From NCBI GenBank assembly GCA_038045705.1, contig JBBSXO010000010.1:1-11751 (forward strand): DNA of 11,751 nt. The letters are read 5' to 3'. Below the pieces are notes generated by a model that saw only the letters and a list, made by a program, of their open reading frames with translations, was not told the origin of the DNA and searched no databases. Shown here one piece after another: positions 1 through 11,751 of this stretch. The stretch's first letter is position 1; every line of letters begins with the position of its first letter. The position numbers and the translations under genes are program-made. Origin of the DNA: Nanobdellota archaeon. Its GTDB lineage: Archaea; Nanobdellota; Nanobdellia; Pacearchaeales; GW2011-AR1.

Positions 1-1
1 A

Positions 2-91
2 ATTATTGTAATGATAGTAATAGTTCATTCTGTGAGAAAGCATAGGAGATTTAAGGGGTTAGTTAATAACTTAGATGTTGTTAAATCATAG
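2..91 (+). CDS. 3' end of a probable C-terminally membrane-anchored protein (partial, starts before the window)
   Basis: My translation of frame 2 reads IIVMIVIVHSVRKHRRFKGLVNNLDVVKS* (TAG at 89-91): a hydrophobic stretch followed by a basic stop-transfer cluster, ending just before the next promoter. Confidence 0.6.
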   Translation: MIVMIVIVHSVRKHRRFKGLVNNLDVVKS

Positions 92-116
92 ATTTAGAAT
101 ACTAATTTTAATAATC

Positions 117-124
117 CTTATAAA
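117..124 (+). promoter_or_regulatory. Archaeal TATA box for the 146..814 gene
   Basis: CTTATAAA with a 21-nt gap to ATG 146, the same spacing as several other genes here. Confidence 0.55.
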
Positions 125-145
125 CTTCTTTTTCATCGATAGTTT

Positions 146-814
146 ATGGAAAAGAGTGTTTTGATAGCATTTATTGTCTTTTTGGTTTTCGTTAGTTCAT
201 TTACTTTTTTTCTTTATGATGAAATATTTCATGAGATTACTGGAAGACAGGTCTTTTTAGATAGTGAATTTGAACAGCCCGCAGATTCTTTCAAACCAAG
301 CAAGCCTTCAAATATTTTTTCTTTGAGTCCATCTAATTGTGAACTTAAATCCATTTCTTTGAGCCATACTGCTACAAAACTTGGGGAAACTGTTTCAGTG
401 TATGTTAATGGTAATGGGTGTTATAGCAGTGATTTAGAAATCAAAGTGTTTGAAAAAGATAAATTTTTTGATGATGAGGTTACTTTAGTTTCTGGAAAGT
501 TTATAAGAGATGAGATTTCTATTGATTTTATTATAGATGAAAAATTTGATTATTTTTTTGATGAATTATTTGAAGGAGATGATATAGAGCTTTATTTTGA
601 GACTAATTTGGTAAACAATAAGTTGACTTCAGATTTGCTTTTTGTTTATTTATCTGAAGAAGATGGTCCACTTTTACAACCTTCAAATGAAGAGAAAAAG
701 TTTGAAATAAAAATTATATTCTGGATGGTCTTTGTGATTCTTGTTGCAGGAATTGCTGTTGCATTTATTTCAATTTTAAGCTCTTTTAAAAGAGGAGCAA
801 TTTCAAAGAACTAG
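146..814 (+). CDS. Hypothetical acidic membrane protein with N- and C-terminal TM helices and a beta-rich extracellular domain
   Basis: 222-aa ORF. N-terminal hydrophobic helix (VLIAFIVFLVFVSSFTFFLY), acidic core with two Cys, C-terminal TM (IIFWMVFVILVAGIAVAFISIL) followed by a basic tail. Confidence 0.8.
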   Translation: MEKSVLIAFIVFLVFVSSFTFFLYDEIFHEITGRQVFLDSEFEQPADSFKPSKPSNIFSLSPSNCELKSISLSHTATKLGETVSVYVNGNGCYSSDLEIKVFEKDKFFDDEVTLVSGKFIRDEISIDFIIDEKFDYFFDELFEGDDIELYFETNLVNNKLTSDLLFVYLSEEDGPLLQPSNEEKKFEIKIIFWMVFVILVAGIAVAFISILSSFKRGAISKN

Positions 815-878
815 AAAATCAATCCGTTTTAAACGATATCTTTATTAATTAAAGTTATTTCATTTTATCAGGTGTTTG

Positions 879-1493
879 ATGGAATTAAGAATTAAAATAA
901 AAAAAAGACATTTATTTGCTATTATTGGGATGATTGTTTTAGTTGGTATTGTTATTGCTTATGGGGGAAATGATCCGCAGAATATGGGTCATTCAGATGG
1001 GGAGATACAACTTACTAATATTGGTCAGAGTTTAACTGCTTGGAGCAATAGTGTGAATAGCCAGATTTCTGGTTTAGGTGGAAGAATGTTTGTTGTAGAG
1101 CGAGATAAATCAGATAGAGGATGGACTGCGGTTAGTCAGCCTCTTCCTGCTCTTTCTTTCCCAGATGGATCAGGAGTTCATAATCCTCAAACTGCTTCTC
1201 ATTCTTATGGTACATCTGTTGTTCCATCGAGTGCTAAGGAAGTTCTTGTTTATGTTTGGGCTTCAAGAGGATCTAATGGTGGAAATAGCGGAATCATCCA
1301 TTACACAATTTCCACTCCCGAAGGTCATGCGCAGAAGTTTTTGGTTGTAGATAATAATAATAATGGTGCAGCGGTGGTTAATTCAGAGAATATGTGGTTT
1401 CCAATTACTAATGATCGGCGTTTGATCGTAAACTTACCAGCTAGAATAACTCAGAACTATAATGCTGGTGCTGAAATCATAGGCTATAGATAA
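879..1493 (+). CDS. Hypothetical secreted/surface protein (signal peptide, short helical stalk, beta-rich C-terminal head)
   Basis: Basic N-terminus plus hydrophobic helix ending VIA, then YGGNDPQNMGHSDGEI. ATG 879 preferred over TTG 876 because an SD-like AGGTG lies at 870-874. TATA-like TTTATTAA at 841-848. Confidence 0.8.
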   Translation: MELRIKIKKRHLFAIIGMIVLVGIVIAYGGNDPQNMGHSDGEIQLTNIGQSLTAWSNSVNSQISGLGGRMFVVERDKSDRGWTAVSQPLPALSFPDGSGVHNPQTASHSYGTSVVPSSAKEVLVYVWASRGSNGGNSGIIHYTISTPEGHAQKFLVVDNNNNGAAVVNSENMWFPITNDRRLIVNLPARITQNYNAGAEIIGYR

Positions 1494-1497
1494 CAAG

Positions 1498-2589
1498 TTA
1501 ATCTAAACCCAAGGATTCTAGAATTTCTTTTTTATTGAATTGTTTTAAATCTTCATATTTTTGGCCAATGCCTAAGAAATAGATTGGTTTGCTAGTGATA
1601 TAGGAAACTGATAATGCTGTTCCACCTTTTTCATCAATATCTGACTTACTTAATATTATCCCATCTATCCCTAAAGCTTCATTAAATGTTTTTATCTGGT
1701 CAATTATATCATTTCCTGCTGTTGATTCCCCGATAAATATTTTCTTATCTGGCTTTATTACTCTAATTAATTTTTCCATTTGTTTTATTAAATTATCTTT
1801 TGTATACATTCTCCCTGCTGTATCTATTAGCAAACATTTTATTTTGTTTTTTTCCGAATATACTTTTGCGTCAAAAGCCACCGAAGTGGGGTCTGTTGAA
1901 TATTGGCTTTTTATTATAGGAATTTTAAGATTATTTGCATGAATTTCTAGTTGTTCTATTGCCGCTGCCCTAAAGGTGTCTGCAGCTGCCAGCACGCAAG
2001 ATATATTATTCTTTTTTAGAAGATTTGCTATTTTGGCTATTGTAGTTGTTTTTCCAGTCCCGTTAATTCCAAAGAAGAGAATAGTGTAAGTGCCCTCTTT
2101 GTCTTTTATCTCTTTAATTAAATCAGGTGAGTCAATTAAGACATCAGATATTGCTTTTTTTATAGATTCAATTATCTTGTTTTTGATATCCTTACTTTTT
2201 GCTTCCTGCCCGATGAGGTCTTCTATTAAATTACTCTTTATTTTATCTACTACTTCTAGAGCAACATTACTTTCTAATAAGACTATTTCTAATTCTTCAA
2301 ATATTTGTTCTACTTGTTCTTTAGTTATTTTGGTATTTGTGAATTTGCTTACTATCTTTGATAAGAAACCCTTTTTTTCTATTTGTTCTTCCTTTATTTC
2401 AGATTCTATTTCTTCATTTGATACTTCTGCTTCTAGACTTTCTATTTTCCTTATTTCTTTAACATTTTTTTCCTTTTTCTTGGTTTTCTTTTCTTTGACA
2501 CTCTTTTTCTTTACACTTTCTGTTTTTTTCTCTTTTGTCTCGGATTTGCCAAAAAATGATTTTAGTTTATCTTTTAATAGCTTAAACAT
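1498..2589 (-). CDS. ftsY: Signal recognition particle receptor FtsY
   Basis: SRP-GTPase motifs GINGTGKTTT, ADTFRAAAIEQL, DTAGR, SKSD..EKGG and GIGQKYEDL; N-domain LLESNVALEV; charged low-complexity N-terminal region. Confidence 0.97.
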   Translation of the reverse strand: MFKLLKDKLKSFFGKSETKEKKTESVKKKSVKEKKTKKKEKNVKEIRKIESLEAEVSNEEIESEIKEEQIEKKGFLSKIVSKFTNTKITKEQVEQIFEELEIVLLESNVALEVVDKIKSNLIEDLIGQEAKSKDIKNKIIESIKKAISDVLIDSPDLIKEIKDKEGTYTILFFGINGTGKTTTIAKIANLLKKNNISCVLAAADTFRAAAIEQLEIHANNLKIPIIKSQYSTDPTSVAFDAKVYSEKNKIKCLLIDTAGRMYTKDNLIKQMEKLIRVIKPDKKIFIGESTAGNDIIDQIKTFNEALGIDGIILSKSDIDEKGGTALSVSYITSKPIYFLGIGQKYEDLKQFNKKEILESLGLD

Positions 2590-2610
2590 GATATTTTAGT
2601 GTTGATAAGG

Positions 2611-2618
2611 TTTATAAG
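2611..2618. promoter_or_regulatory. Candidate bidirectional TATA box shared by ftsY and apgM
   Basis: Reads TTTATAAG on + and CTTATAAA on -; exactly 21 nt from each start codon (2589 and 2640). Confidence 0.6.
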
Positions 2619-2639
2619 TTTTTTATATATCTTAATTAA

Positions 2640-3884
2640 ATGAAAGGCATTTTTGTAATTCTTGATGGTGCTCCAGATGAGCCTTGTTCTAAACTTAATG
2701 ATAAAACTCCTCTTGAATATTCAAAAACTCCAAATTTAGATTATTTTGCTTCTAGGGGAGATATATACAATTGTTTTCCTATAGCTGAGGGTATTGCGCC
2801 TCAGTCTTCTAGTGGATTAGTTTCTTTGTTTGGGGCAGACTTTAGAGATTATTCTAGGGGAGTACTTGAGTCTATTGGAGCTGGAATTCATTTGAATGAA
2901 GGAGATTTAGCTTTAAGGATTAATTTTGCAACTATTGATAATTTAAACAATATGAAGCTGATCGATAGAAGAGCTGGAAGAACTTTAACTAATAAAGAAG
3001 CTATTGAACTTGCTGAAGCAGTTAATTCTAAATTAAAATTACCTTTTAAGTTTGAGTTAATTCATACTGTAGGGCACAGAGGTGTTCTTGTTTTTAGGGG
3101 CGTTTTTTCAGATAAGGTAACTAATGTTGATCCTTCTTATAGTGATGGGCTATCTGTTGAGAATGCTGGCGAGATTGTGGAGTTTTCCAAGCCGAAGGAT
3201 AATAGTAATAAGTCTAGATTAACCTCTGATTTGTTGAATACTTTTATCCGTAAAAGTTATGTTATTCTTGAGAACCATCCTATTAACATAATTCGTAAGA
3301 AGAAGGGTTTTTTTCCAGCTAATTTTCTTTTATGTAGAGATGCTGGTATAGGATTGATTAAGGATTATAAGTTGCGTGGTTCGTGGATTGGTTTTGGATA
3401 TATGCCTTTGGAAATAGGGGTTGCTAAAGTTTTTGGAATGAGAGTTTCATCTTTTAATATGCCTTCGATGGAAAAAGAAGATTTTTATAACCATGTTGAG
3501 CAAAATTTAGATAGAGCAATAACAAAATCTGTTGAGATGATTCAAACCAATTCTGAAATTATAGATTATTTTTATATCCATTTTAAAGAAACTGATTTAC
3601 CAGGGCATGATAATAAACCTTTTCAAAAAGTTAAATTTATAGAATTAATAGATAAGAAATTCTTTGGATATTTGAGAAGTTTATCTGTTAATTTTAGACT
3701 TTTAGTTACTTCAGACCATACTACTTCTTGTCGTGCTAAAAGTCATACATCCCATTCAGTACCAGTTTTATTTTATGAAGGAGATCATCTTAAAAGTTCA
3801 AATAAGAGATTTATTGAGAAAGATGGTCTTAAAGGCAAGACATTTATGGGAAGACAGTTGTTGAGAAAGACTTTGTTTTTATAA
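2640..3884 (+). CDS. apgM: 2,3-bisphosphoglycerate-independent phosphoglycerate mutase, archaeal ApgM type (alkaline phosphatase superfamily)
   Basis: ILDGAPDEP, TPLE..TPNLD, RGVLES, RINFAT, DRRAGR, and metal-ligand motifs HFKETDLPGHD, TSDHTT and HTSHSVPVL. Confidence 0.9.
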   Translation: MKGIFVILDGAPDEPCSKLNDKTPLEYSKTPNLDYFASRGDIYNCFPIAEGIAPQSSSGLVSLFGADFRDYSRGVLESIGAGIHLNEGDLALRINFATIDNLNNMKLIDRRAGRTLTNKEAIELAEAVNSKLKLPFKFELIHTVGHRGVLVFRGVFSDKVTNVDPSYSDGLSVENAGEIVEFSKPKDNSNKSRLTSDLLNTFIRKSYVILENHPINIIRKKKGFFPANFLLCRDAGIGLIKDYKLRGSWIGFGYMPLEIGVAKVFGMRVSSFNMPSMEKEDFYNHVEQNLDRAITKSVEMIQTNSEIIDYFYIHFKETDLPGHDNKPFQKVKFIELIDKKFFGYLRSLSVNFRLLVTSDHTTSCRAKSHTSHSVPVLFYEGDHLKSSNKRFIEKDGLKGKTFMGRQLLRKTLFL

Positions 3885-3895
3885 CTGAATGATTG

Positions 3896-3902
3896 TTTTT
3901 TT
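3896..3902 (+). terminator. Possible oligo-T terminator after apgM
   Basis: T7 run 11 nt after the stop codon. Archaeal terminators are typically oligo-T, but such runs are common in AT-rich DNA. Confidence 0.35.
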
Positions 3903-3914
3903 AGCAACATCATA

Positions 3915-3922
3915 TTTATAAC
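3915..3922 (+). promoter_or_regulatory. TATA box for the GINS gene
   Basis: TTTATAAC with a 21-nt gap to ATG 3944. Confidence 0.6.
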
Positions 3923-3943
3923 ATCTGCATCGGTTTTTTACTT

Positions 3944-4489
3944 ATGTTAAAATACGAGGAATTATATGAGATTTTACGTAAGGAAAAGACTAATGACTCT
4001 CTTCAGAAAATATCTTCTGATTTCATCAAAGACTTTTCTAATTTGATTCATGAAAACAAGCGTAATATAACTAGTAAAGGTGATTTTTTTGCAGAAGACA
4101 TAATTAGAGATAAGAAACAGTATGAAAACTCAATGATTCTTTTTAAGGAACTAATGCTTAGGAGAAAGAAGAAAATTCTAAATTTAGTTTTTATAGCTAA
4201 TGAAACAAGTGTTATGAAAAGAGATTTTGAAAATATGTTTCCATTTGAAAAAGATTTGTTTGATGGTTTGCTATCTTCTATTGAACAAACTGACAAATTA
4301 ATTTCTATGCTTTTAATTAATGAGTCTTCTGTTGTAAATAATACCTCTTTAATTATTACAGATGATGTAGAATCTTTTGTTGGTATGGATGGGGAATCTA
4401 TAGGCCCATTTAAGAAAGGTCAATCTGTTTTATTAGACAAGATAACCGCTGATGTCTTAATTGGTGGACAGAAAGCTGTAAGTGTTTAA
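3944..4489 (+). CDS. DNA replication complex GINS subunit, Gins51/Gins15 type
   Basis: Helical A domain (YEELYEILRKEK..LQKI...F; RRKKKILNL; NMFPFEKDLF) followed by a beta-rich B domain (DVESFVGMDGESIGPFKKGQSVLL...ADVLI), the AB order typical of Gins51. Confidence 0.88.
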   Translation: MLKYEELYEILRKEKTNDSLQKISSDFIKDFSNLIHENKRNITSKGDFFAEDIIRDKKQYENSMILFKELMLRRKKKILNLVFIANETSVMKRDFENMFPFEKDLFDGLLSSIEQTDKLISMLLINESSVVNNTSLIITDDVESFVGMDGESIGPFKKGQSVLLDKITADVLIGGQKAVSV

Positions 4490-4932
4490 TCAGAGATTAC
4501 TCTAGAAGATTTTTTATCTCTTTTTAATAAGCCTAATTGGTCGTCTAATTCTTGTGCCATTGTTTTTAGGTCTTCAAAGACTCTTTGCAGGTCTCTTTGT
4601 AGTTCTTCCATTAGTGTTTCTAAATTCTCAACTCTTAGCATATATTTATTTTCATGTTGAGCAACTAATCCTGATTCTATAAGATGTGATATATGATGGA
4701 TAATTGTCCCTCTTGTTAGATTAGTTCTTGTTGCTAGTTCATCTGAACTCAATAATTGTTTTCTTCTAGCTGATTTAACGAGTTCGACAAAAATTCTGAA
4801 ACATGATCTTTCTTTATCTCTTTGAGAGAACAGTCCAAGAGATTCTGAAAACCATTGAAGGTCAGCATTCAGATCTTTTTTTTGAGGTTTCCTTGTTTTT
4901 ATTAAGGTTACTTTTCTAAATTCATAAATCAT
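4486..4932 (-). CDS. Winged helix-turn-helix transcriptional regulator (ArsR-like fold) with C-terminal coiled coil; candidate heat-shock repressor
   Basis: HTH LSSDELATRTNLTRGTIIHHISHLIESGLV plus wing (ENKYMLR), then an amphipathic helix LETLMEELQRDLQRVFEDLKTMAQELD. Divergent from grpE. Its stop overlaps the GINS stop (TTAA 4486-4489). The heat-shock role is inference. Confidence 0.88.
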   Translation of the reverse strand: MIYEFRKVTLIKTRKPQKKDLNADLQWFSESLGLFSQRDKERSCFRIFVELVKSARRKQLLSSDELATRTNLTRGTIIHHISHLIESGLVAQHENKYMLRVENLETLMEELQRDLQRVFEDLKTMAQELDDQLGLLKRDKKSSRVISD

Positions 4933-4940
4933 TTTTGCTC

Positions 4941-4959
4941 TGTTGAGTTAAGGTAAACA
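4941..4959. promoter_or_regulatory. Degenerate operator copy upstream of the regulator (possible autoregulation)
   Basis: TGTTGAG-ttaag-GTAAACA matches TGTTTAC-N5-GTAAACA at 12 of 14 positions and lies between the regulator TATA box and its ATG. Confidence 0.55.
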
Positions 4960-4961
4960 AG

Positions 4962-4969
4962 TATTTAAG
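4962..4969 (-). promoter_or_regulatory. TATA box for the wHTH regulator
   Basis: Minus strand reads CTTAAATA, preceded by purine-rich GAGTAAATAAC; 29-nt gap to ATG 4932. Confidence 0.5.
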
Positions 4970-4994
4970 GTTATTTACTCAAAATCTAAGAAAT

Positions 4995-5009
4995 CGAAAG
5001 ATTTAAATA
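4995..5009 (+). promoter_or_regulatory. BRE plus TATA box of the grpE-dnaK-dnaJ operon
   Basis: CGAAAG-A-TTTAAATA, a near-consensus archaeal BRE/TATA; predicts a transcription start near 5031. Confidence 0.75.
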
Positions 5010-5029
5010 GGTGTTTATTTGATATATTC

Positions 5030-5052
5030 TATGTTTACTCTAAGTAAACATA
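5030..5052. promoter_or_regulatory. Perfect inverted repeat, candidate operator of the chaperone operon
   Basis: TATGTTTACT-cta-AGTAAACATA (10-bp arms, 3-nt spacer), overlapping the predicted transcription start. Confidence 0.75.
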
Positions 5053-5072
5053 ACTTGCTTAAAATGATAAAA

Positions 5073-5585
5073 ATGGATATAAAACAAGAAGTTAAAAAAG
5101 ATGTTAATGAATTTGAAGATCAACTTAAAAATGATATTGAGATGAAGACTAAGGTTATAGAGGATTATGAAAATAGTCTTAAACGTCTTCAGGCCGATTT
5201 TGAAAATTATGTGAAACGTTCTCAAAAGGAAAAAGAAGATTTTGCAAGAGTTGCTATCGCTAAAGTTCTTGTTAAGTTTGTTGATATTGTTGATGATTTA
5301 GATAGAGCTTTAAGTGTTCTTGAAAAGATTCAAGATGGAGAAGTTAAGACTGGAATTAAGATGGTACACAGTCGTTTTCATAAAATTCTTCGGGAAGAGG
5401 GGATAAAACCTTTTGACTCGGAAGGTAATAGTGTTGACCCATATAAACATGAAGTTATAGAGATGGTTTCTTCAAATAAATCGGAAGGAACTGTTATTGA
5501 AGAAATTCAAAAGGGTTATTCTCTTGGAGATAAGATTCTTAGAGTTGCTAAAGTAAGAGTTTCAAATGGGGAAATTAGAAAATGA
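5073..5585 (+). CDS. grpE: Nucleotide exchange factor GrpE
   Basis: [48 protein letters not shown]. Start uncertain: the track's TTG 5019 lies upstream of the predicted transcription start; in-frame ATGs are at 5031, 5064 and 5073. Confidence 0.95.
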
Positions 5586-7429
5586 GCGGTAAGGAAAAAA
5601 TAATTGGTATTGATCTTGGGACGCAGAATAGTGCTGCTTCAGTTTTACAGGCTGGACGTCCAACTATTGTTCCTAGTGCTGAAGGAGCTTCTCTTTATGG
5701 AAAAGCTTTTCCTAGTTTTGTAGCATTTACAAAAGATGGTTCTGTTTTAGTTGGAGAACCTGCACGCAGACAGGCAATATCGAACCCAGAAGGAACTGTT
5801 TATGGTGCTAAAAGAAAAATGGGAACTAATTTTAAATATAATGTTCATGGAAAAGAATATTCTCCTCAACAAATATCTGCATTTATATTGCAGAAGATAA
5901 AACGTGATGCTGAAGAGTTCTTAGGAGAGAAAGTTAACAAGGCAGTTATTACTGTTCCAGCTTATTTTGATGACAATCAAAGACAGGCAACTAAAGATGC
6001 AGGTCAGATTGCAGGGTTAGAAGTTGTTAGAATTATAAACGAACCTACTGCAGCTGCTTTAGCTTTTGGATTAGATAAACAAGATAAGGAATCTAAAATA
6101 CTTGTTTTTGATTTGGGCGCTGGAACTTTAGATGTTACAATTATGGAGTTAGGAGATGGAATATTCGAAGTTAAATCTACTTCTGGAGATACCCAATTAG
6201 GTGGTCATGATATGGATGCTACAATTATTAACTATATCATAAAAGAATTTGAAAAAGAGCACAGTGTTGATTTAAATGAAGATAAAACTGCGGTTCAGAG
6301 AGTTCGTGAAGCTGCTGAAAAGGCTAAGATAGAATTGTCCACAGTTACAGAATCGGAGATTAACTTACCATTTATTCATAAACAAAAGAACTTCAAAATT
6401 ACTTTGACAAGAGCAAAGCTTGAAGAGTTAATTGATCCTATTGTCCAGAAGTGCAGAAAACCTTTAATGAATGCAATTAAGGATGCTAAATTAGATATAA
6501 AAGATATTCATAAGATTATTTTAGTTGGCGGACCTACTAGAATGCCCGTAATTAGAAATTTTGTGGAGAACATTTTAGGAAGAAAGGCTGAACGTGGAAT
6601 TGATCCAATGGAATGTGTTGCAAATGGTGCAGCTATACAAGGGGGAGTCTTGGCTGGAGAAGTTAAAGATATACTTTTACTGGATGTTACTCCTTTGACT
6701 TTAGGTATTGAAACACTTGGGGGAATTAAAACTGCTTTAATACAGAGAAATACAACTATTCCTACCAAAAAATCTCAAGTATTTTCTACTGCTGAAGATA
6801 ATCAGGGTGCTGTAACTATTCATGTCTTGCAAGGTGAACGGGAAATGGCATCAGATAATAAGAGTCTCGGTCGTTTTGATTTAGTCGGCATTCCTCCTGC
6901 ACCTAGAGGAGTTCCTCAAGTTGAGGTTACTTTTGATATTGATGCTAGTGGTATAATTCATGTATCTGCTAAAGACTTGGGAACTGGAAAAGAACAGAAG
7001 ATTAAAATTACTGCAGAGAATAAATTAAGCGAAAAGGAAGTTGAACGTATGAGAAAGGAGTCTGAAGATTTTGCTGAAGAGGATAAAAAGAAAAAAGAGA
7101 AAGCTGAAATTAGAAATCAGGCTGATTCTTTGGTTTATACCATAGATAAATCTTTGAAGGAATTTGAAGGTAAAATAAGTGAAGATGATATTAAAGAAAT
7201 AAAGAGTGAAAAAGAAGACTTAAAGAAGAAATTACATGAGGAAGATGTCGATGCGATAAAGTCTACAATGGAAAAACTTAATAAGAAGTTGCATGATGCT
7301 TCAACTAAACTTTATGATAAAGCCAAAAAAGAAGAAAAACAAGCTAAAGACCATGAGTTAAATAAAAATGGCAAGAAAGAAGATAACATAATAGATGCTG
7401 AAGTTGTTAATAATGAGGAAGAAGATTAG
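5582..7429 (+). CDS. dnaK: Chaperone DnaK (Hsp70)
   Basis: [59 protein letters not shown] and [27 protein letters not shown] overlap with the grpE stop. Lacks the N-terminal subdomain insertion seen in proteobacterial DnaK. Confidence 0.99.
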
Positions 7430-7452
7430 AGTCTCTTCCTTAGGGATTATTA

Positions 7453-8553
7453 ATGGCAGATGATTATTATAAAATATTGGGTGTTGGTAAGAATGCTTCT
7501 GATGAAGAGATAAAAAAAAGTTATAAACAATTAGCTAAGAAATATCATCCGGATGTGAACAAAGATTCTAATGCTGAATCTAAATTTAAAGAGGTTTCAG
7601 AAGCTTATGCTGTTCTTTCAGATAAACAGAAACGTCAACAATATGATTCTTTTGGAAAGGATGGTTTTCAGCAGAGATATTCTTCTGAAGACATATTTAG
7701 AAATTTTGACTCTTCACAATTTGAAGATTTGTTCGGTGGATCAATTTTTGAAAGTTTCTTTGGTGGAAATAGAAAATCAAGGAATAAGAGGGGAAGAGAT
7801 TTGCAAGTTTCATTGAACTTAACTTTTGATGAAGCAATGAGTGGTGTGCAAAAAGAATTAAGATTACGAAAGAAAGATAAGTGTTCTGATTGTGATGGTA
7901 CTGGTGCTGAAGATAAGGAATTAGAATCTTGTGAAACTTGTCATGGTTCTGGGCAAGTCAGAAAATCTACTCGTACTCCATTTGGTAGTTTTATGCAGGT
8001 TGGTGTTTGTTCCGAATGTAATGGTCTAGGTAGGATTCCTATTGAGATTTGTAAATCATGTGAAGGTACTGGCCATGTTGAAGCAACTAAAAAAATTATT
8101 GCTAATATTCCGGCTGGAGTTGATAATGGTTCTAGGTTAAGAGTTCTAAATGAAGGAGAATATGAAAATGGAAGTGCCTCTGGAGATTTATATATAAATA
8201 TAGAAGTTGATGATTCCGATATTTTTAGGAGAGATGGCAATGATCTTTACTTAAATTTACCAATAACTTTTAGTCAGGCTGCACTAGGTTGTGAAATTAA
8301 AATTCCAACTTTACAAAAAGATGTTACTATAAAGATTCCATCGGGTACACAATCTGGTACTCATATTAAACTCAGGGATGAAGGTGCTCCAGATGTTAAT
8401 GGCAATGAAAGGGGAGATATTTATATTATTGTAGAAGTTGTGACTCCTAAGAAACTTTCTAGAGAACAAAAGCAATTGTTTGAGAAACTGCAAAATCTTG
8501 ATGAAAAAAAATCTATATTTGATAAAATTAGAGAATTAACAAAGAAGAAGTAG
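7453..8553 (+). CDS. dnaJ: Chaperone DnaJ (class A Hsp40)
   Basis: J domain with HPD, short G/F region with EDIF, four CxxCxGxG repeats ([32 protein letters not shown]), C-terminal [13 protein letters not shown]. Confidence 0.98.
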
Positions 8554-8559
8554 TTTTTT
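8554..8559 (+). terminator. Possible oligo-T terminator after dnaJ
   Basis: T6 immediately after TAG, at the convergent junction with the 410-aa gene. Confidence 0.35.
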
Positions 8560-9790
8560 AAGGTGAACAGTCAAATTTGACAACAGTTGATCTTCCAGAC
8601 ATGAATCCTAATATTGATGAATCCGAAAAGACTGCTTTTGGGGCTATGTCTACTCTGTTTGAGATTATTTTGGCAGGTAATAGTGGTTTTTCTGCTATGA
8701 GTCCAGAGTTAGAGTTATACACCACAACAAGATTACCGGGAGATGGAAGATCAACGAGATCTGGATAATATCCTTGATCTGAAAGTGTATAATCTAGGCT
8801 ATCAAGTGTCGTTATCGTACCCATGTTTACATCTGCAACAGCAATGCTTTCAATACTATTTGGATTGATATAATCTTGGTAAATTGCCATTAGTGTTGGT
8901 GGGTATCCTAATGAGTGAATTGAATCAATATCTAGCCCAATTGGTAAGCTTACTATCCTGGGGTTTGGCAAGTTAATATCAAAAATATAGGTTTCGTTTC
9001 CTGGATCTGGTTCTACTGTGGATGCAAATCCTATATTCCTTAGATTTCTATAGAACAAGTATCTGTAACTTGAGTGAACTACGAAATCTTCTATTTTTCC
9101 GTTGCAATTATCTCTTGTTCCTGGTTGTAATGAGCAAGAAACATAAGATGATGTTCTTGGAATTGGAATTGTAGGAACATCATATACATCTTCATATGCT
9201 ATATGGATTCTATTTTGTGTAACTGTTGGAGCAATTGATTGCAGTTTTATGTATCTACTAATTGTCGATAATATTCTTGTGTTAGTACAACCTTGAGATG
9301 TTAACGTGCAAGATTTTATTTCTTTTTTTCCTGATTTAATTGGCTTTACCCAATATAATGTGCTGTTTATTGTATTAATGTTCGGTGCTGATATTATGGG
9401 GTGAATATAAGTTTCGTTTCCGTAAATAGAATCTATTAGAAATCCTCTGTCATCTTGAGTATTGAGTAAAGAATCATTTCCAATATCATAAATATAAAGT
9501 TCAGTTTTATTTAAAATTCTGTTATAAATAAATAGACTTATATGTCTTGGATCAACTTTTTCTATTTCTTCTATAGACGATCTTGCAGGCATTCCATGAT
9601 TTTGAAAGACAGTAGTTATGTTATTGTAACCGCAAGGTTTAGAAGAATTTCCTACTGGAGCACTTAATGGTCCAGCGGATATTTTTTCAATAAGACTTGG
9701 ATTTTCATCATTATCTGTTTGGAAAAATACACCCAATACTGTAACTGATAAAATAAGAATAATAATTTTTAGAGTAATTTCTTTTATCAT
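8558..9790 (-). CDS. Hypothetical secreted/membrane-anchored protein, probable beta-propeller
   Basis: 410-aa ORF with N-terminal hydrophobic helix, recurring short beta strands (LYIYDIG, TLYWV, IHIAYED, TYIFDI, IAVADV, LVVVY), Cys pairs and several N-x-S/T sequons. The fold is inferred. Confidence 0.78.
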   Translation of the reverse strand: MIKEITLKIIILILSVTVLGVFFQTDNDENPSLIEKISAGPLSAPVGNSSKPCGYNNITTVFQNHGMPARSSIEEIEKVDPRHISLFIYNRILNKTELYIYDIGNDSLLNTQDDRGFLIDSIYGNETYIHPIISAPNINTINSTLYWVKPIKSGKKEIKSCTLTSQGCTNTRILSTISRYIKLQSIAPTVTQNRIHIAYEDVYDVPTIPIPRTSSYVSCSLQPGTRDNCNGKIEDFVVHSSYRYLFYRNLRNIGFASTVEPDPGNETYIFDINLPNPRIVSLPIGLDIDSIHSLGYPPTLMAIYQDYINPNSIESIAVADVNMGTITTLDSLDYTLSDQGYYPDLVDLPSPGNLVVVYNSNSGLIAEKPLLPAKIISNRVDIAPKAVFSDSSILGFMSGRSTVVKFDCSP

Positions 9791-9817
9791 TTTCTACTCT
9801 TAGATGAATAAAATTTG

Positions 9818-9837
9818 ATATATAAAGATTTATATAT
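9818..9837. promoter_or_regulatory. Inverted repeat formed by two back-to-back TTTATATA boxes
   Basis: ATATATAAA-ga-TTTATATAT (9-bp arms) in the divergent intergenic region 9791-9893. Confidence 0.5.
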
Positions 9838-9863
9838 TTCTTAGTTTGGCTCCGTTAATAACC

Positions 9864-9871
9864 CTTATAAA
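9864..9871 (+). promoter_or_regulatory. TATA box for the 9894 gene
   Basis: CTTATAAA with a 22-nt gap to ATG 9894. Confidence 0.55.
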
Positions 9872-9893
9872 TCGCAGAGTTGTTAAATCTTTT

Positions 9894-11751
9894 ATGAGGA
9901 GATTTGAATTGATAATATTTAGTCTTATTTTCTTGCTTTTTATGATCTTTATTTTACTTTATCGCGACAGTCTAAATTTTTCACCAGACTCTTCTGCATT
10001 ACTCGCACCTACAGAATTGCATGCTTTAGCACTAAATTCTTCAGCATTAAGAATTACATGGAATGATAATGGAGATAGTAACTCTAATTTTATGATTGAA
10101 AGAAGGTCTCTTCCAGATGGAGAATTCTCATTTTTATCAACGTCTACTAATTCTATCAATAATTTAGAGATGTTTATTGATATAGGTCTTACACCTAATT
10201 CTTCTTTTGAATATGTTATAACTGCATTTAATAGCACTGATATTTCTAGTCCTTCTAATCCGATTCAAGCTACTACTTTAATGAGAGATACTGAATTGAT
10301 TCTTACTCCAAATTTTGGTAGCTTGGATTTTCTAGATTTATTTACTGATGTTCAATCATGGGAATATGTCAAAGCCAATTTAGATGGATTTGGCTTTTTT
10401 TACCATAACTTAAAGACTAATCCTCAATGTTCTGCTTCAACTTGTGGCAATGTCAATTATGATAATCTTGTTGCTGTAGATGCTTTCTCAAAATTAAGGC
10501 AGTGGGAATTAGAGACTTCTATAGAAGTTGATGTTGTCAAGTGGCATAGTTGCATCGCTTCTGAAAGAACAATACCAGCTATTCAACAGATTATTACTAA
10601 TGTGGAAAATGCTGGCGGGAGAGTTGATTCTATTTTTATGGATCAACCATTAAATGGTGGACAAGAAATTATCTGTTTAGGTTCTAATGGGGCAAGGATA
10701 GTCAGTAGCTGTAGCTCTTGTGTTAGTGGAGAAACTTGCCGGACATGCGGTTATACTATGCAACAATCTGCTTCACAGACTGCTCAATATATCAAAGCTT
10801 TACGCGCATGGAGACCTGGCATAAAAATAGGAGATACCGAGCCTTATTCTAAATTTAGCCCTGCTCAAATTCAATTATGGATTGAGGCTCTTAATGCTGA
10901 GAATGTGACATTAGACTCTTTTAGGTCTGATGTTGGTTCCAGGCAAACTTCTGATATACCTAACCTTCGTCAAATAAAGAACTTTTTTATTCAACAAAAT
11001 ATCCCTTATGGTATAATTTATTGGGCTTTCGTGCCAAACAATTTTTTAACTAACAGAGATAGAGAATTTTTTACAAGGGTTTCACAATGGGTAAATTTTG
11101 TAGATGTAAATAAGTTAGATGGACAAATACACAATTTTCAAAGTTGGGATACTAGCCCTGCTGGATCCACTAATCCAGGTCAGACTGTACCTATAAATCT
11201 TCCTGAAGATGATCTTTCGATTTATAGCCATACTCGTCTTATGAGAGAAAATCTGGGTATTCTTTTAGATAATGATGCACAATTTGTCAGTCAACAGGCC
11301 TTGAGCAATATAATCGCTGGTCAGCAATATAATGTTGCTATTACTTTATTAAATAATGGATCTCAACCCTGGGAAGAAGGCAGGTCTTATACTTTAGGGT
11401 CACAGAATCCAAGAGACAATACTAATTGGGGAACTATGAGAGTTGCTCTTAATCCTGGAGAAGTTATTTTTCCAGGTCAGCAAAAGACTTTCAACTTTTT
11501 AATTACTGCTCCTTCGGTTATTGGATCATATAATTTTCAGTGGCAAATGTTGCATGAATCTATAGAATGGTTTGGAGATTTGACACCAAATGTTCAAGTT
11601 AATGTTCTTAGATCCTCTTTGCCCAACTCACCTAGTGACTTGAACGTTACTCCAGTAAGTTCTATACAGTTGAGACTTAATTGGAAAGATAATAGTGATA
11701 ATGAAATGAACTTCAGAGTTGAGAGAAGACAATTACCTTCTGGTAGCTTTA
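9894..11751 (+). CDS. Large multidomain surface protein, partial (at least 619 aa): TM/signal, FN3, glycoside-hydrolase-like domain, NBR1-type Ig-like domain, FN3
   Basis: My translation is open from ATG 9894 to the window end (MRRFELIIFSLIFLLFMIFILLYRD...). FN3 at ~10005-10280 (APTELHA..LRITWNDN..FMIERR..GLTPNSSFEYVITAFN); Ig-like at ~11268-11606 (NDAQFVSQ..LLNNGSQPW..LGSQNP..PGQQKTFNFLITAP..GSYNFQWQM..WFG); second FN3 from ~11622. Absent from the ORF track because it has no stop in the window. Confidence 0.9.
   Translation, partial: MRRFELIIFSLIFLLFMIFILLYRDSLNFSPDSSALLAPTELHALALNSSALRITWNDNGDSNSNFMIERRSLPDGEFSFLSTSTNSINNLEMFIDIGLTPNSSFEYVITAFNSTDISSPSNPIQATTLMRDTELILTPNFGSLDFLDLFTDVQSWEYVKANLDGFGFFYHNLKTNPQCSASTCGNVNYDNLVAVDAFSKLRQWELETSIEVDVVKWHSCIASERTIPAIQQIITNVENAGGRVDSIFMDQPLNGGQEIICLGSNGARIVSSCSSCVSGETCRTCGYTMQQSASQTAQYIKALRAWRPGIKIGDTEPYSKFSPAQIQLWIEALNAENVTLDSFRSDVGSRQTSDIPNLRQIKNFFIQQNIPYGIIYWAFVPNNFLTNRDREFFTRVSQWVNFVDVNKLDGQIHNFQSWDTSPAGSTNPGQTVPINLPEDDLSIYSHTRLMRENLGILLDNDAQFVSQQALSNIIAGQQYNVAITLLNNGSQPWEEGRSYTLGSQNPRDNTNWGTMRVALNPGEVIFPGQQKTFNFLITAPSVIGSYNFQWQMLHESIEWFGDLTPNVQVNVLRSSLPNSPSDLNVTPVSSIQLRLNWKDNSDNEMNFRVERRQLPSGSF

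Follow-up and report, generated by a model that had tools for sequence, protein, structure and literature searches.

How does an archaeon control a chaperone operon of bacterial type? The question is raised by an 11,751-nucleotide (nt) stretch of a Nanobdellota archaeon genome (contig JBBSXO010000010.1, positions 1 to 11,751; hereafter the window), in which the Hsp70 genes grpE, dnaK, and dnaJ lie head-to-head with the gene of a small winged helix-turn-helix (wHTH) protein. An earlier reading of the letters alone (the sequence-only reading) had proposed that this protein is an autoregulated repressor of the DnaK system in an archaeon of the DPANN group. The comparative data of the present study support the proposal, in that the gene linkage and the operator motif are conserved and the main site lies over the inferred transcription start. 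It is likely that the 148-amino-acid (aa) protein is an autoregulated homodimeric repressor of the Hsp70 operon and of its own gene, which would be released by proteotoxic or heat stress.

The regulator gene (4486..4932, - strand) encodes a wHTH protein with an N-terminal dimerisation segment and a long C-terminal helix, based on Pfam and an AlphaFold2 (AF2) model. Divergent from it are grpE (5064..5585, + strand; Pfam GrpE, E 5.7e-39), dnaK (5582..7429, + strand; Pfam HSP70, E 5.4e-225; NCBIfam DnaK, 864 bits against a cut-off of 648), and a type I dnaJ with J domain, zinc-finger domain, and C-terminal domain (7453..8553, + strand; Pfam DnaJ, DnaJ_C, and CXXCXGXG; TIGR02349, 428.6 bits against a cut-off of 377.2). 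The end of grpE and the start of dnaK overlap by 4 nt (5582-5585). The grpE start is either the ATG at 5064 or the in-frame ATG at 5073, and in one related locus (L002) the grpE alignment begins only at the second of these; the TTG at 5019, an alternative start of the grpE open reading frame (ORF), would fall within the promoter. The arrangement that had been read from the letters, a wHTH plus coiled-coil gene head-to-head with grpE-dnaK-dnaJ, is borne out by the Pfam and NCBIfam assignments and by the long helix (residues 104-132) of the AF2 model. The sequence-only reading had also reported that a full CIRCE element and hrcA are missing from the window, and this holds: there is no match to CIRCE in the window at up to three mismatches to its consensus, and none of the 11 window ORFs scanned with Pfam has an HrcA domain.

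As had been claimed, a palindrome copy follows a TATA box in both directions. At the chaperone promoter, the TATA box TTTAAATA (5002..5009, + strand) is preceded by CGAAAGA, a stretch resembling the transcription factor B (TFB) recognition element (BRE), and is separated by approximately 22 nt from the chaperone-side site. Here the motif TGTTTAC-N5-GTAAACA is present with no mismatches at 5032-5050, and the perfect repeat reaches further, forming the 9-N5-9 palindrome TATGTTTAC-TCTAA-GTAAACATA at 5030..5052. The core of this main operator, O_chap, at 5033-5049, begins 31 nt from the start of the TATA box and is located over the inferred transcription start. An auxiliary, degenerate operator, GTTTAT-TTGAT-ATATTC (5013..5029), with two mismatches to the 12-nt core, lies one 20-bp step upstream of it. 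On the regulator side, the operator O_reg, TGTTGAG-TTAAG-GTAAACA (4941..4959), has two mismatches, agreeing with the window palindrome at 12 of 14 positions. It is placed between the ATG at 4932 and the TATA-like box CTTAAATA (4962..4969, - strand), which comes 2 nt before it and would be that of the regulator promoter.

Relatives of the regulator are numerous, with 734 at E<=1e-3 in a word-indexed protein set. An exhaustive search of 50%-identity representatives returned 421 clusters at E<=1e-3 and 278 at E<=1e-10, a word-index search with a distant family member (P0259) returned three unnamed proteins only, and a profile scan with a 25-sequence alignment (A1) identified 559 relatives, one genome per GTDB species. 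The comparative counts given here are for the best 80 of these 559 (loci numbered from L001), with up to 5 kb on each side of the regulator and 647,959 nt in all. The regulators of the 80 loci, which are from other species, are 50-93% identical to that of the window. Relatives of the regulator are on contigs titled Pacearchaeota, Woesearchaeota, Nanoarchaeota, or Nanoarchaeia, titles with which the proposed DPANN host is consistent. Divergent grpE was found within the fetched stretch in 62 of the 74 loci having at least 1 kb upstream of the regulator. In 49 of the 74, the immediate divergent neighbour is grpE (38 loci), hsp20, as assigned by Pfam HSP20 (nine loci), or f60, an unnamed gene heading the operon (two loci).

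A blind count of 5-mer dyads with spacers of 0-12 nt ranks GTTGA-N7-TCAAC first; this dyad is present in 54 of 78 regulator-upstream regions of 250 nt, against none of 361 control segments from the same loci. The consensus across the family is GTTGAC-TTTAA-GTCAAC, of which GTTTAC/GTAAAC in the window is the variant of its own clade. The motif TGTTTAC-N5-GTAAACA of the sequence-only reading was right in its position, with this correction for the family-wide form. The exact 12-nt core GTTKAY-N5-RTMAAC occurs 65 times in the fetched sequence, against 0.69 expected from a Markov-1 model, and 61 of these cores are upstream of the regulator, grpE, hsp20, f60, or dnaK; the other four comprise two in over-extended grpE ORF calls, one in a doubtful 85-aa ORF (L042), and one inside dnaJ (L051). 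Among the 40 one-mismatch sites, 16 are at target promoters and 23 are intragenic, as for chance matches, the only non-target intergenic match being the site before f45 in L041. With up to one mismatch and within 200 nt upstream of one of the five target genes, a site is present in 68 of the 80 loci, and at nine of the ten operons headed by hsp20. Conservation of linkage and motif in related genomes had been set as a test of the proposal; both are kept throughout the sampled range of regulator identity.

The site follows the regulator and the chaperone genes when these are apart. In L002, L006, L007, L015, L016, L018, and L031, and also in L004 and L014, grpE is 0.6-2 kb from the regulator and a site is still directly before grpE, and in most loci with displaced grpE there is a second site before the regulator. 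The detached dnaK of L008 has its own site, and in L026, L030, and L056 the regulator keeps its site without an adjacent chaperone gene. This two-sided co-occurrence of the site with regulator and chaperone genes is as predicted for an autoregulated dedicated factor. When 31 further neighbouring ORFs within 5 kb on either side were investigated with Pfam, no extra chaperone or protease with a site before it was found.

For column conservation, 67 chaperone-side sites were anchored on the palindrome. A conservation of 80% is reached only by the TATA box, by a GTT 20 nt upstream, and by the palindrome itself; the flanks are not conserved. In most sites the TATA box, TTTAWAWA, begins 30-36 nt ahead of the core; the most frequent distance, 31 nt (24 of 67 sites), is also that of the window. 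The GTT, which at least 80% of the anchored sites have at a distance of exactly 20 nt from the core, is part of a second, usually degenerate, copy of the site beside the TATA box, and a full second site in tandem is present in L053, L058, L048, and L040. Archaeal transcription start sites are usually approximately 25 nt downstream of the TATA box, therefore the main site would cover approximately +1 to +20. Dedicated regulator promoters, in the window and in L003, L007, L008, L018, L056, L066, L068, and L077, consist of a TATA box, 2-4 nt, the site, 3-20 nt, and the ATG; a site at the regulator's own separate promoter is what autoregulation predicts. The commonest arrangement has a single site at a distance of 84-90 nt from where the regulator gene starts; L020 and L029 have a second TATA-like element just downstream of the site.

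In the regulator protein, Pfam identifies HTH_24 (24.2 bits, cut-off 21.9) and HTH_5 (23.4 bits, cut-off 22), matches that would place it in the ArsR/SmtB-type wHTH superfamily only. The AF2 model, from a 25-row alignment, has a mean predicted local distance difference test (pLDDT) of 79.8 and a predicted template-modelling score (pTM) of 0.62. It comprises an N-terminal helix (21-31), the wHTH (42-99, with helices 42-56, 63-70, and 74-86 and wing 90-99), and the long helix (104-132). A homodimer is predicted with the interface score ipSAE at 0.84, 0.84, and 0.83 in three runs, against 0.00 for the best control; the runs share at least 94% of contacts, with a partner pLDDT of at least 83. The mark is reached by 20 of 30 solved same-chain pairs and by one of 23 single chains, a calibration that is rough here due to the custom alignment, and the score may partly reflect likeness to wHTH dimers, which are common among solved structures. 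The predicted interface consists of antiparallel pairing of helix 104-130 together with residues 5-32. Such a dimer would fit the two-fold symmetric site, and would account for the strong conservation of the N-terminal motif DLQWFSxSLGLFxxRDKExSCFRIF in A1.

The recognition helix reads HHI(S/T/N)HL in the clade of the window (the window and L001 to L008) and HHLNKL in most relatives, and the operators of this clade have T or C for G at arm position 4. This possible co-variation of recognition helix and operator was not used as evidence, since a single clade amounts to one event and L065 does not fit.

The genes, the sites, their conservation and fixed position, and the predicted dimer were computed here, and the mechanism favoured on this basis is as follows. 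The homodimeric wHTH factor would bind GTTKAY-N5-RTMAAC (in the window, TATGTTTAC-N5-GTAAACATA). It would occupy the main site of the chaperone promoter, some 22 nt after the TATA box and over the inferred start, with the degenerate second site filling the gap beside the TATA box, and at the regulator promoter one site would abut the TATA box. Bound dimers would exclude TFB and RNA polymerase from both promoters, and the regulator would in this way keep grpE-dnaK-dnaJ (in relatives, hsp20-grpE-...-dnaK-dnaJ) and its own gene low. Proteotoxic or heat stress would inactivate or release the regulator, turning both promoters on. A position downstream of the TATA box or over the start is a known location of archaeal repressors. 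For Phr and HSR1, a block of TFB and RNA polymerase from such positions has been described (PMC9133787, PMC2396416).

A number of points weigh against this reading. Within the window alone, the palindrome is at the level of chance: at least two motif matches at up to three mismatches occurred in 47 of 200 shuffles, which is not significant, and perfect inverted repeats (arms of at least 9 nt, spacers of 0-12 nt) occurred in 69.5% of Markov-1 simulations of the window; its significance therefore comes from the comparison with related loci only. That comparison is confined to the most similar relatives, its target sites were looked for within 5 kb of the regulator, and its gene starts are approximate, the window proteins having been mapped onto the loci by tblastn and the ORFs taken from a simple caller. 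Divergent grpE is missing from 12 of the 74 loci, including L003, where grpE-dnaK-dnaJ is downstream on the same strand, and L008, where dnaK is upstream. By the criterion of one mismatch and 200 nt, 12 of the 80 loci have no site. Among these 12, L004 carries the symmetric variant GTTCAC/GTGAAC ahead of grpE, L001 and L075 have two-mismatch copies, L036 has a copy 312 nt upstream, L005 is cut off by the contig end, and L055 simply lacks a site. In L009, L043, L054, L057, L061, and L067, a regulator homologue (52-62% identical) has neither the palindrome nor a nearby grpE; these may be paralogues that act on a different target, or genes that have moved. The regulator contains no recognisable sensor domain. 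Each functional step, whether binding, repression as opposed to activation, or the stress or heat signal, is inferred from sequence.

Several other explanations share some or all of these observations. The protein could act through this site as an activator, or as a dual regulator, of the chaperone operon. Many relatives have their single site upstream of or beside the TATA element that serves the divergent regulator gene, both directions may depend on one TATA-like element in the commonest arrangement, and the second TATA-like element just after the site in L020 and L029 makes the position of the site relative to the promoter ambiguous. Activation is nevertheless unlikely, given that most of the 67 anchored sites come after the chaperone TATA box and that the copies at dedicated regulator promoters directly follow theirs, which is the position of a repressor by what is established for archaeal regulators such as Phr and HSR1 (PMC9133787, PMC2396416). 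A second alternative is that the palindrome acts as a hairpin in the 5' untranslated region of the chaperone mRNA, as a stability element or RNA thermometer, with the wHTH gene unrelated to it. The window transcript from 5030 does fold into a hairpin of 10 bp (-8.5 kcal/mol, z-score -2.89, three of 200 shuffles folding at least as well), and the site is at or just after the inferred start. This explanation is very improbable in view of the arms, the sequence of which is conserved beyond pairing: 79-81 of 81 sites agree at arm positions 1, 2, 3, and 5, and at position 4 there are 14 asymmetric against six symmetric variants, so that 14 of 20 break the pair, and none of the asymmetric variants is able to form G:U in RNA. 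In addition, the copies at the regulator promoters are between TATA box and start and would be mostly untranscribed, the hairpin leaves the Shine-Dalgarno-like GGTG and the ATG uncovered, a phased auxiliary DNA half-site lies 20 nt upstream, and no Rfam family matches at the site.

It is also quite unlikely that the palindrome is the site of another factor encoded elsewhere and that the wHTH protein is a general neighbour of the Lrs14-like chromatin or biofilm type. The closest sequence relatives are Lrs14/Sta1-like and Sso10a-type wHTH proteins, some of which have been described as chromatin proteins, but the site stays with the regulator even without an adjacent chaperone gene (L026, L030, and L056, and as the two-mismatch copy in L075), and is found with the chaperone genes when the regulator lies elsewhere. 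There is a modest chance that the circuit is as proposed and that the signal is something other than temperature, either redox through a cysteine of the DPANN clade or, in the manner of HspR or HrcA, the load of unfolded protein through DnaK/DnaJ. Cys44 is invariant in A1, genes of redox or metal type are present in the operon of relatives (CxxCxxCC in 33 loci, with FMN reductase and rhodanese nearby), and the controlled operon encodes a chaperone able to feed back. On the other hand, Cys44 is lost in the wider family, being T or A in distant members and leaving the 90-sequence alignment A2 without an invariant column, and Hsp20 and Hsp70 are classical heat-shock genes.

To which known regulators the protein is related was investigated with A1, A2, and a fold search. 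The nearest solved structure by sequence is 2d1h (ST1889 of Sulfolobus tokodaii), with E 1.3e-5 for A1 and 5.3e-8 for A2; Foldseek gives 2d1h at E 6.9e-3 and no fold match at E<=1e-3. The best named matches are the NCBIfam Sta1 and Lrs14 models, which reach E<=0.01 in 73 and 72 of the 90 A2 members, and the regulator is far under the curated cut-offs of both (23.1 against 90 bits for Lrs14, 25.8 against 80 for Sta1; NF040939, NF053606). Judged by these profiles, it belongs to a distinct wHTH family, distantly related to Lrs14-like proteins. With the Lrs14/Sta1 proteins of the Sulfolobales (2d1h ST1889, 6cmv) and with Sso10a (1r7j) it has in common a wHTH and, after it, a helix through which the dimer pairs, but a conserved N-terminal segment (5-41) is additional in it and its C-terminal helix is longer. 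Lrs14-type proteins are not known to be linked to chaperone genes.

As to the range of the family, a few labelled members of Atlas clusters, which are leads only, are Woesearchaeota, Iainarchaeota, Microcaldota, Thermoplasmatota, and 'Methanobacteriota'. Approximately 20 contigs (e.g. L019, L024, L034, and L042) are titled 'uncultured Methanosarcinales archaeon', and their regulator and operon look Woesearchaeota-like. The Atlas label 'Methanobacteriota' of the nearest cluster may share its origin with these titles, and neither label is evidence of family range.

Two archaeal heat-shock regulators, Phr of Pyrococcus furiosus and HSR1 of Archaeoglobus fulgidus, are the only ones described to date according to PMC9133787. 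Both hosts are hyperthermophiles (PMC9133787, PMC2396416) and both proteins are assigned to arCOG01684 (PMC5852551). The sequence-only reading had drawn an analogy with them, citing for HSR1 the motif CTAAC-N5-GTTAG, which the literature confirms (PMC9133787, PMC2396416). The analogy stands for architecture alone, in operator position and autoregulatory site. Each of the two is a small autoregulated wHTH protein with a palindrome having a 5-nt spacer, located after the BRE/TATA or over the start, and hsp20 is among the targets; the present system likewise has its palindrome after the TATA box or over the start and a site at the regulator's own promoter. Such likeness in operator position would be one of mechanism and is not evidence of homology. 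A specific relationship to Phr was rejected with the two profiles and the fold search: Phr (2p4w) is absent from the 47 PDB matches of A1 at E<=10, is not among the Foldseek PDB matches listed, and with A2 is found at E 0.016 (18.1 bits) over 38 HTH residues (57-94), ranked 39th behind generic ArsR, MarR, and CodY proteins. The system differs from HSR1 and Phr also in its half-site, GTTGAC, in its main target, the bacterial-type DnaK system, and in its DPANN hosts. Pyrococcus and Archaeoglobus are not known to have a DnaK system.

The bacterial systems HrcA/CIRCE and HspR/HAIR, of dnaK and groE operons, are alike in having a dedicated repressor and an inverted-repeat operator at the dnaK promoter, often in the same locus. 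They differ in that there is no HrcA or MerR-type domain and no CIRCE here, and in that the promoter is of the archaeal TATA/BRE type. For HspR, with its MerR-type HTH, no MerR-family match of the regulator was found in Pfam or NCBIfam, and the HAIR motif was not searched for. The archaeal DnaK system is regarded as a lateral acquisition from bacteria (PMC8204110), and the bacterial regulator did not accompany it.

More tentatively, and as a possibility that we would not favour, the regulator family could be what corresponds in archaea to HrcA and HspR and had been missing. The DPANN group, and perhaps archaea outside it, would have taken up DnaK-DnaJ-GrpE without the bacterial repressor and would have recruited an Lrs14-like protein with the operator GTTGAC-N5-GTCAAC. 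The dimer itself would be the stress sensor, its coiled-coil and N-terminal strand-swap either melting directly or depending on DnaK/DnaJ. If true, this would be a third, independent family of archaeal heat-shock regulators, and the first for an archaeal Hsp70 operon.

An archaeal autoregulated stress repressor with its operator over the start would be of a known kind; new would be the different protein family and its connection with a laterally acquired Hsp70 system. Full-text literature searches gave no account of such a regulator for an archaeal dnaK operon, the Methanosarcina hsp70 papers in subscription journals of the 1990s aside. In those papers, small ORFs are reportedly present upstream of grpE. 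In the portions available, papers on archaeal and DPANN DnaK make no mention of a regulator, repressor, promoter, or HrcA (PMC12874294, PMC3564930, PMC8204110). The regulator family, its operator, and the promoter architecture can be read by comparison across a large group without cultures, in which 559 species-level genomes hold a relative, and would bear on how archaea control a laterally acquired bacterial chaperone machine. They would offer a handle on stress regulation in the DPANN archaea, which are hard to study, and for experiment the system is small, one small protein and a 23-bp site.

The operons of relatives contain genes that are not seen here. In many (e.g. L017, L020-L025, L027, L029, L032, and L033), extra conserved small genes are present between grpE and dnaK, including a CxxCxxCC gene (PF03692; f0) directly after grpE in the 33 loci already mentioned and a DUF3467 gene (f1) directly before dnaK in 23; both are absent from the window. 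Genes for NUDIX, GNAT, metallo-beta-lactamase, HD, FMN-reductase, and inositol-monophosphatase proteins are also present in the operons of relatives. These additional genes could be partners or clients of the archaeal Hsp70 system. In two loci, an ORF resembling a LAGLIDADG homing endonuclease lies between grpE and dnaK (L006:2459-3394, - strand, and L016:1291-2220, - strand). An intein in dnaK was considered for these loci and rejected, as the ORF stands by itself and is followed by an unbroken N-terminus of DnaK. In L077, an inserted DDE transposase (3910-4935, - strand) parts the regulator from the hsp20-grpE operon, with the palindrome kept at both promoters. Where the regulator is separated from grpE, the ORFs directly upstream of it include VapB-like antitoxins (L001:106-354 and L002:4665-4913) and a PIN-domain protein (L015:4583-4969).

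The G+C content of the window is 28-37%. Upstream of the chaperone locus are genes assigned to FtsY (1498-2589, - strand), a cofactor-independent phosphoglycerate mutase (2640-3884), and a Gins51-like protein (3944-4489, + strand). The last of these is convergent with the regulator gene, the stop codons of the two genes overlapping by 4 nt (4486-4489). Four flanking ORFs (146-814, 876-1493, 8558-9790, and 9846-11750) probably encode surface proteins. Three of these have no Pfam family, and in two of the three a hydrophobic N-terminal segment can be read from the translations; the fourth, of more than 635 aa, contains fn3 and NBR1-like Ig domains and extends past the window end.

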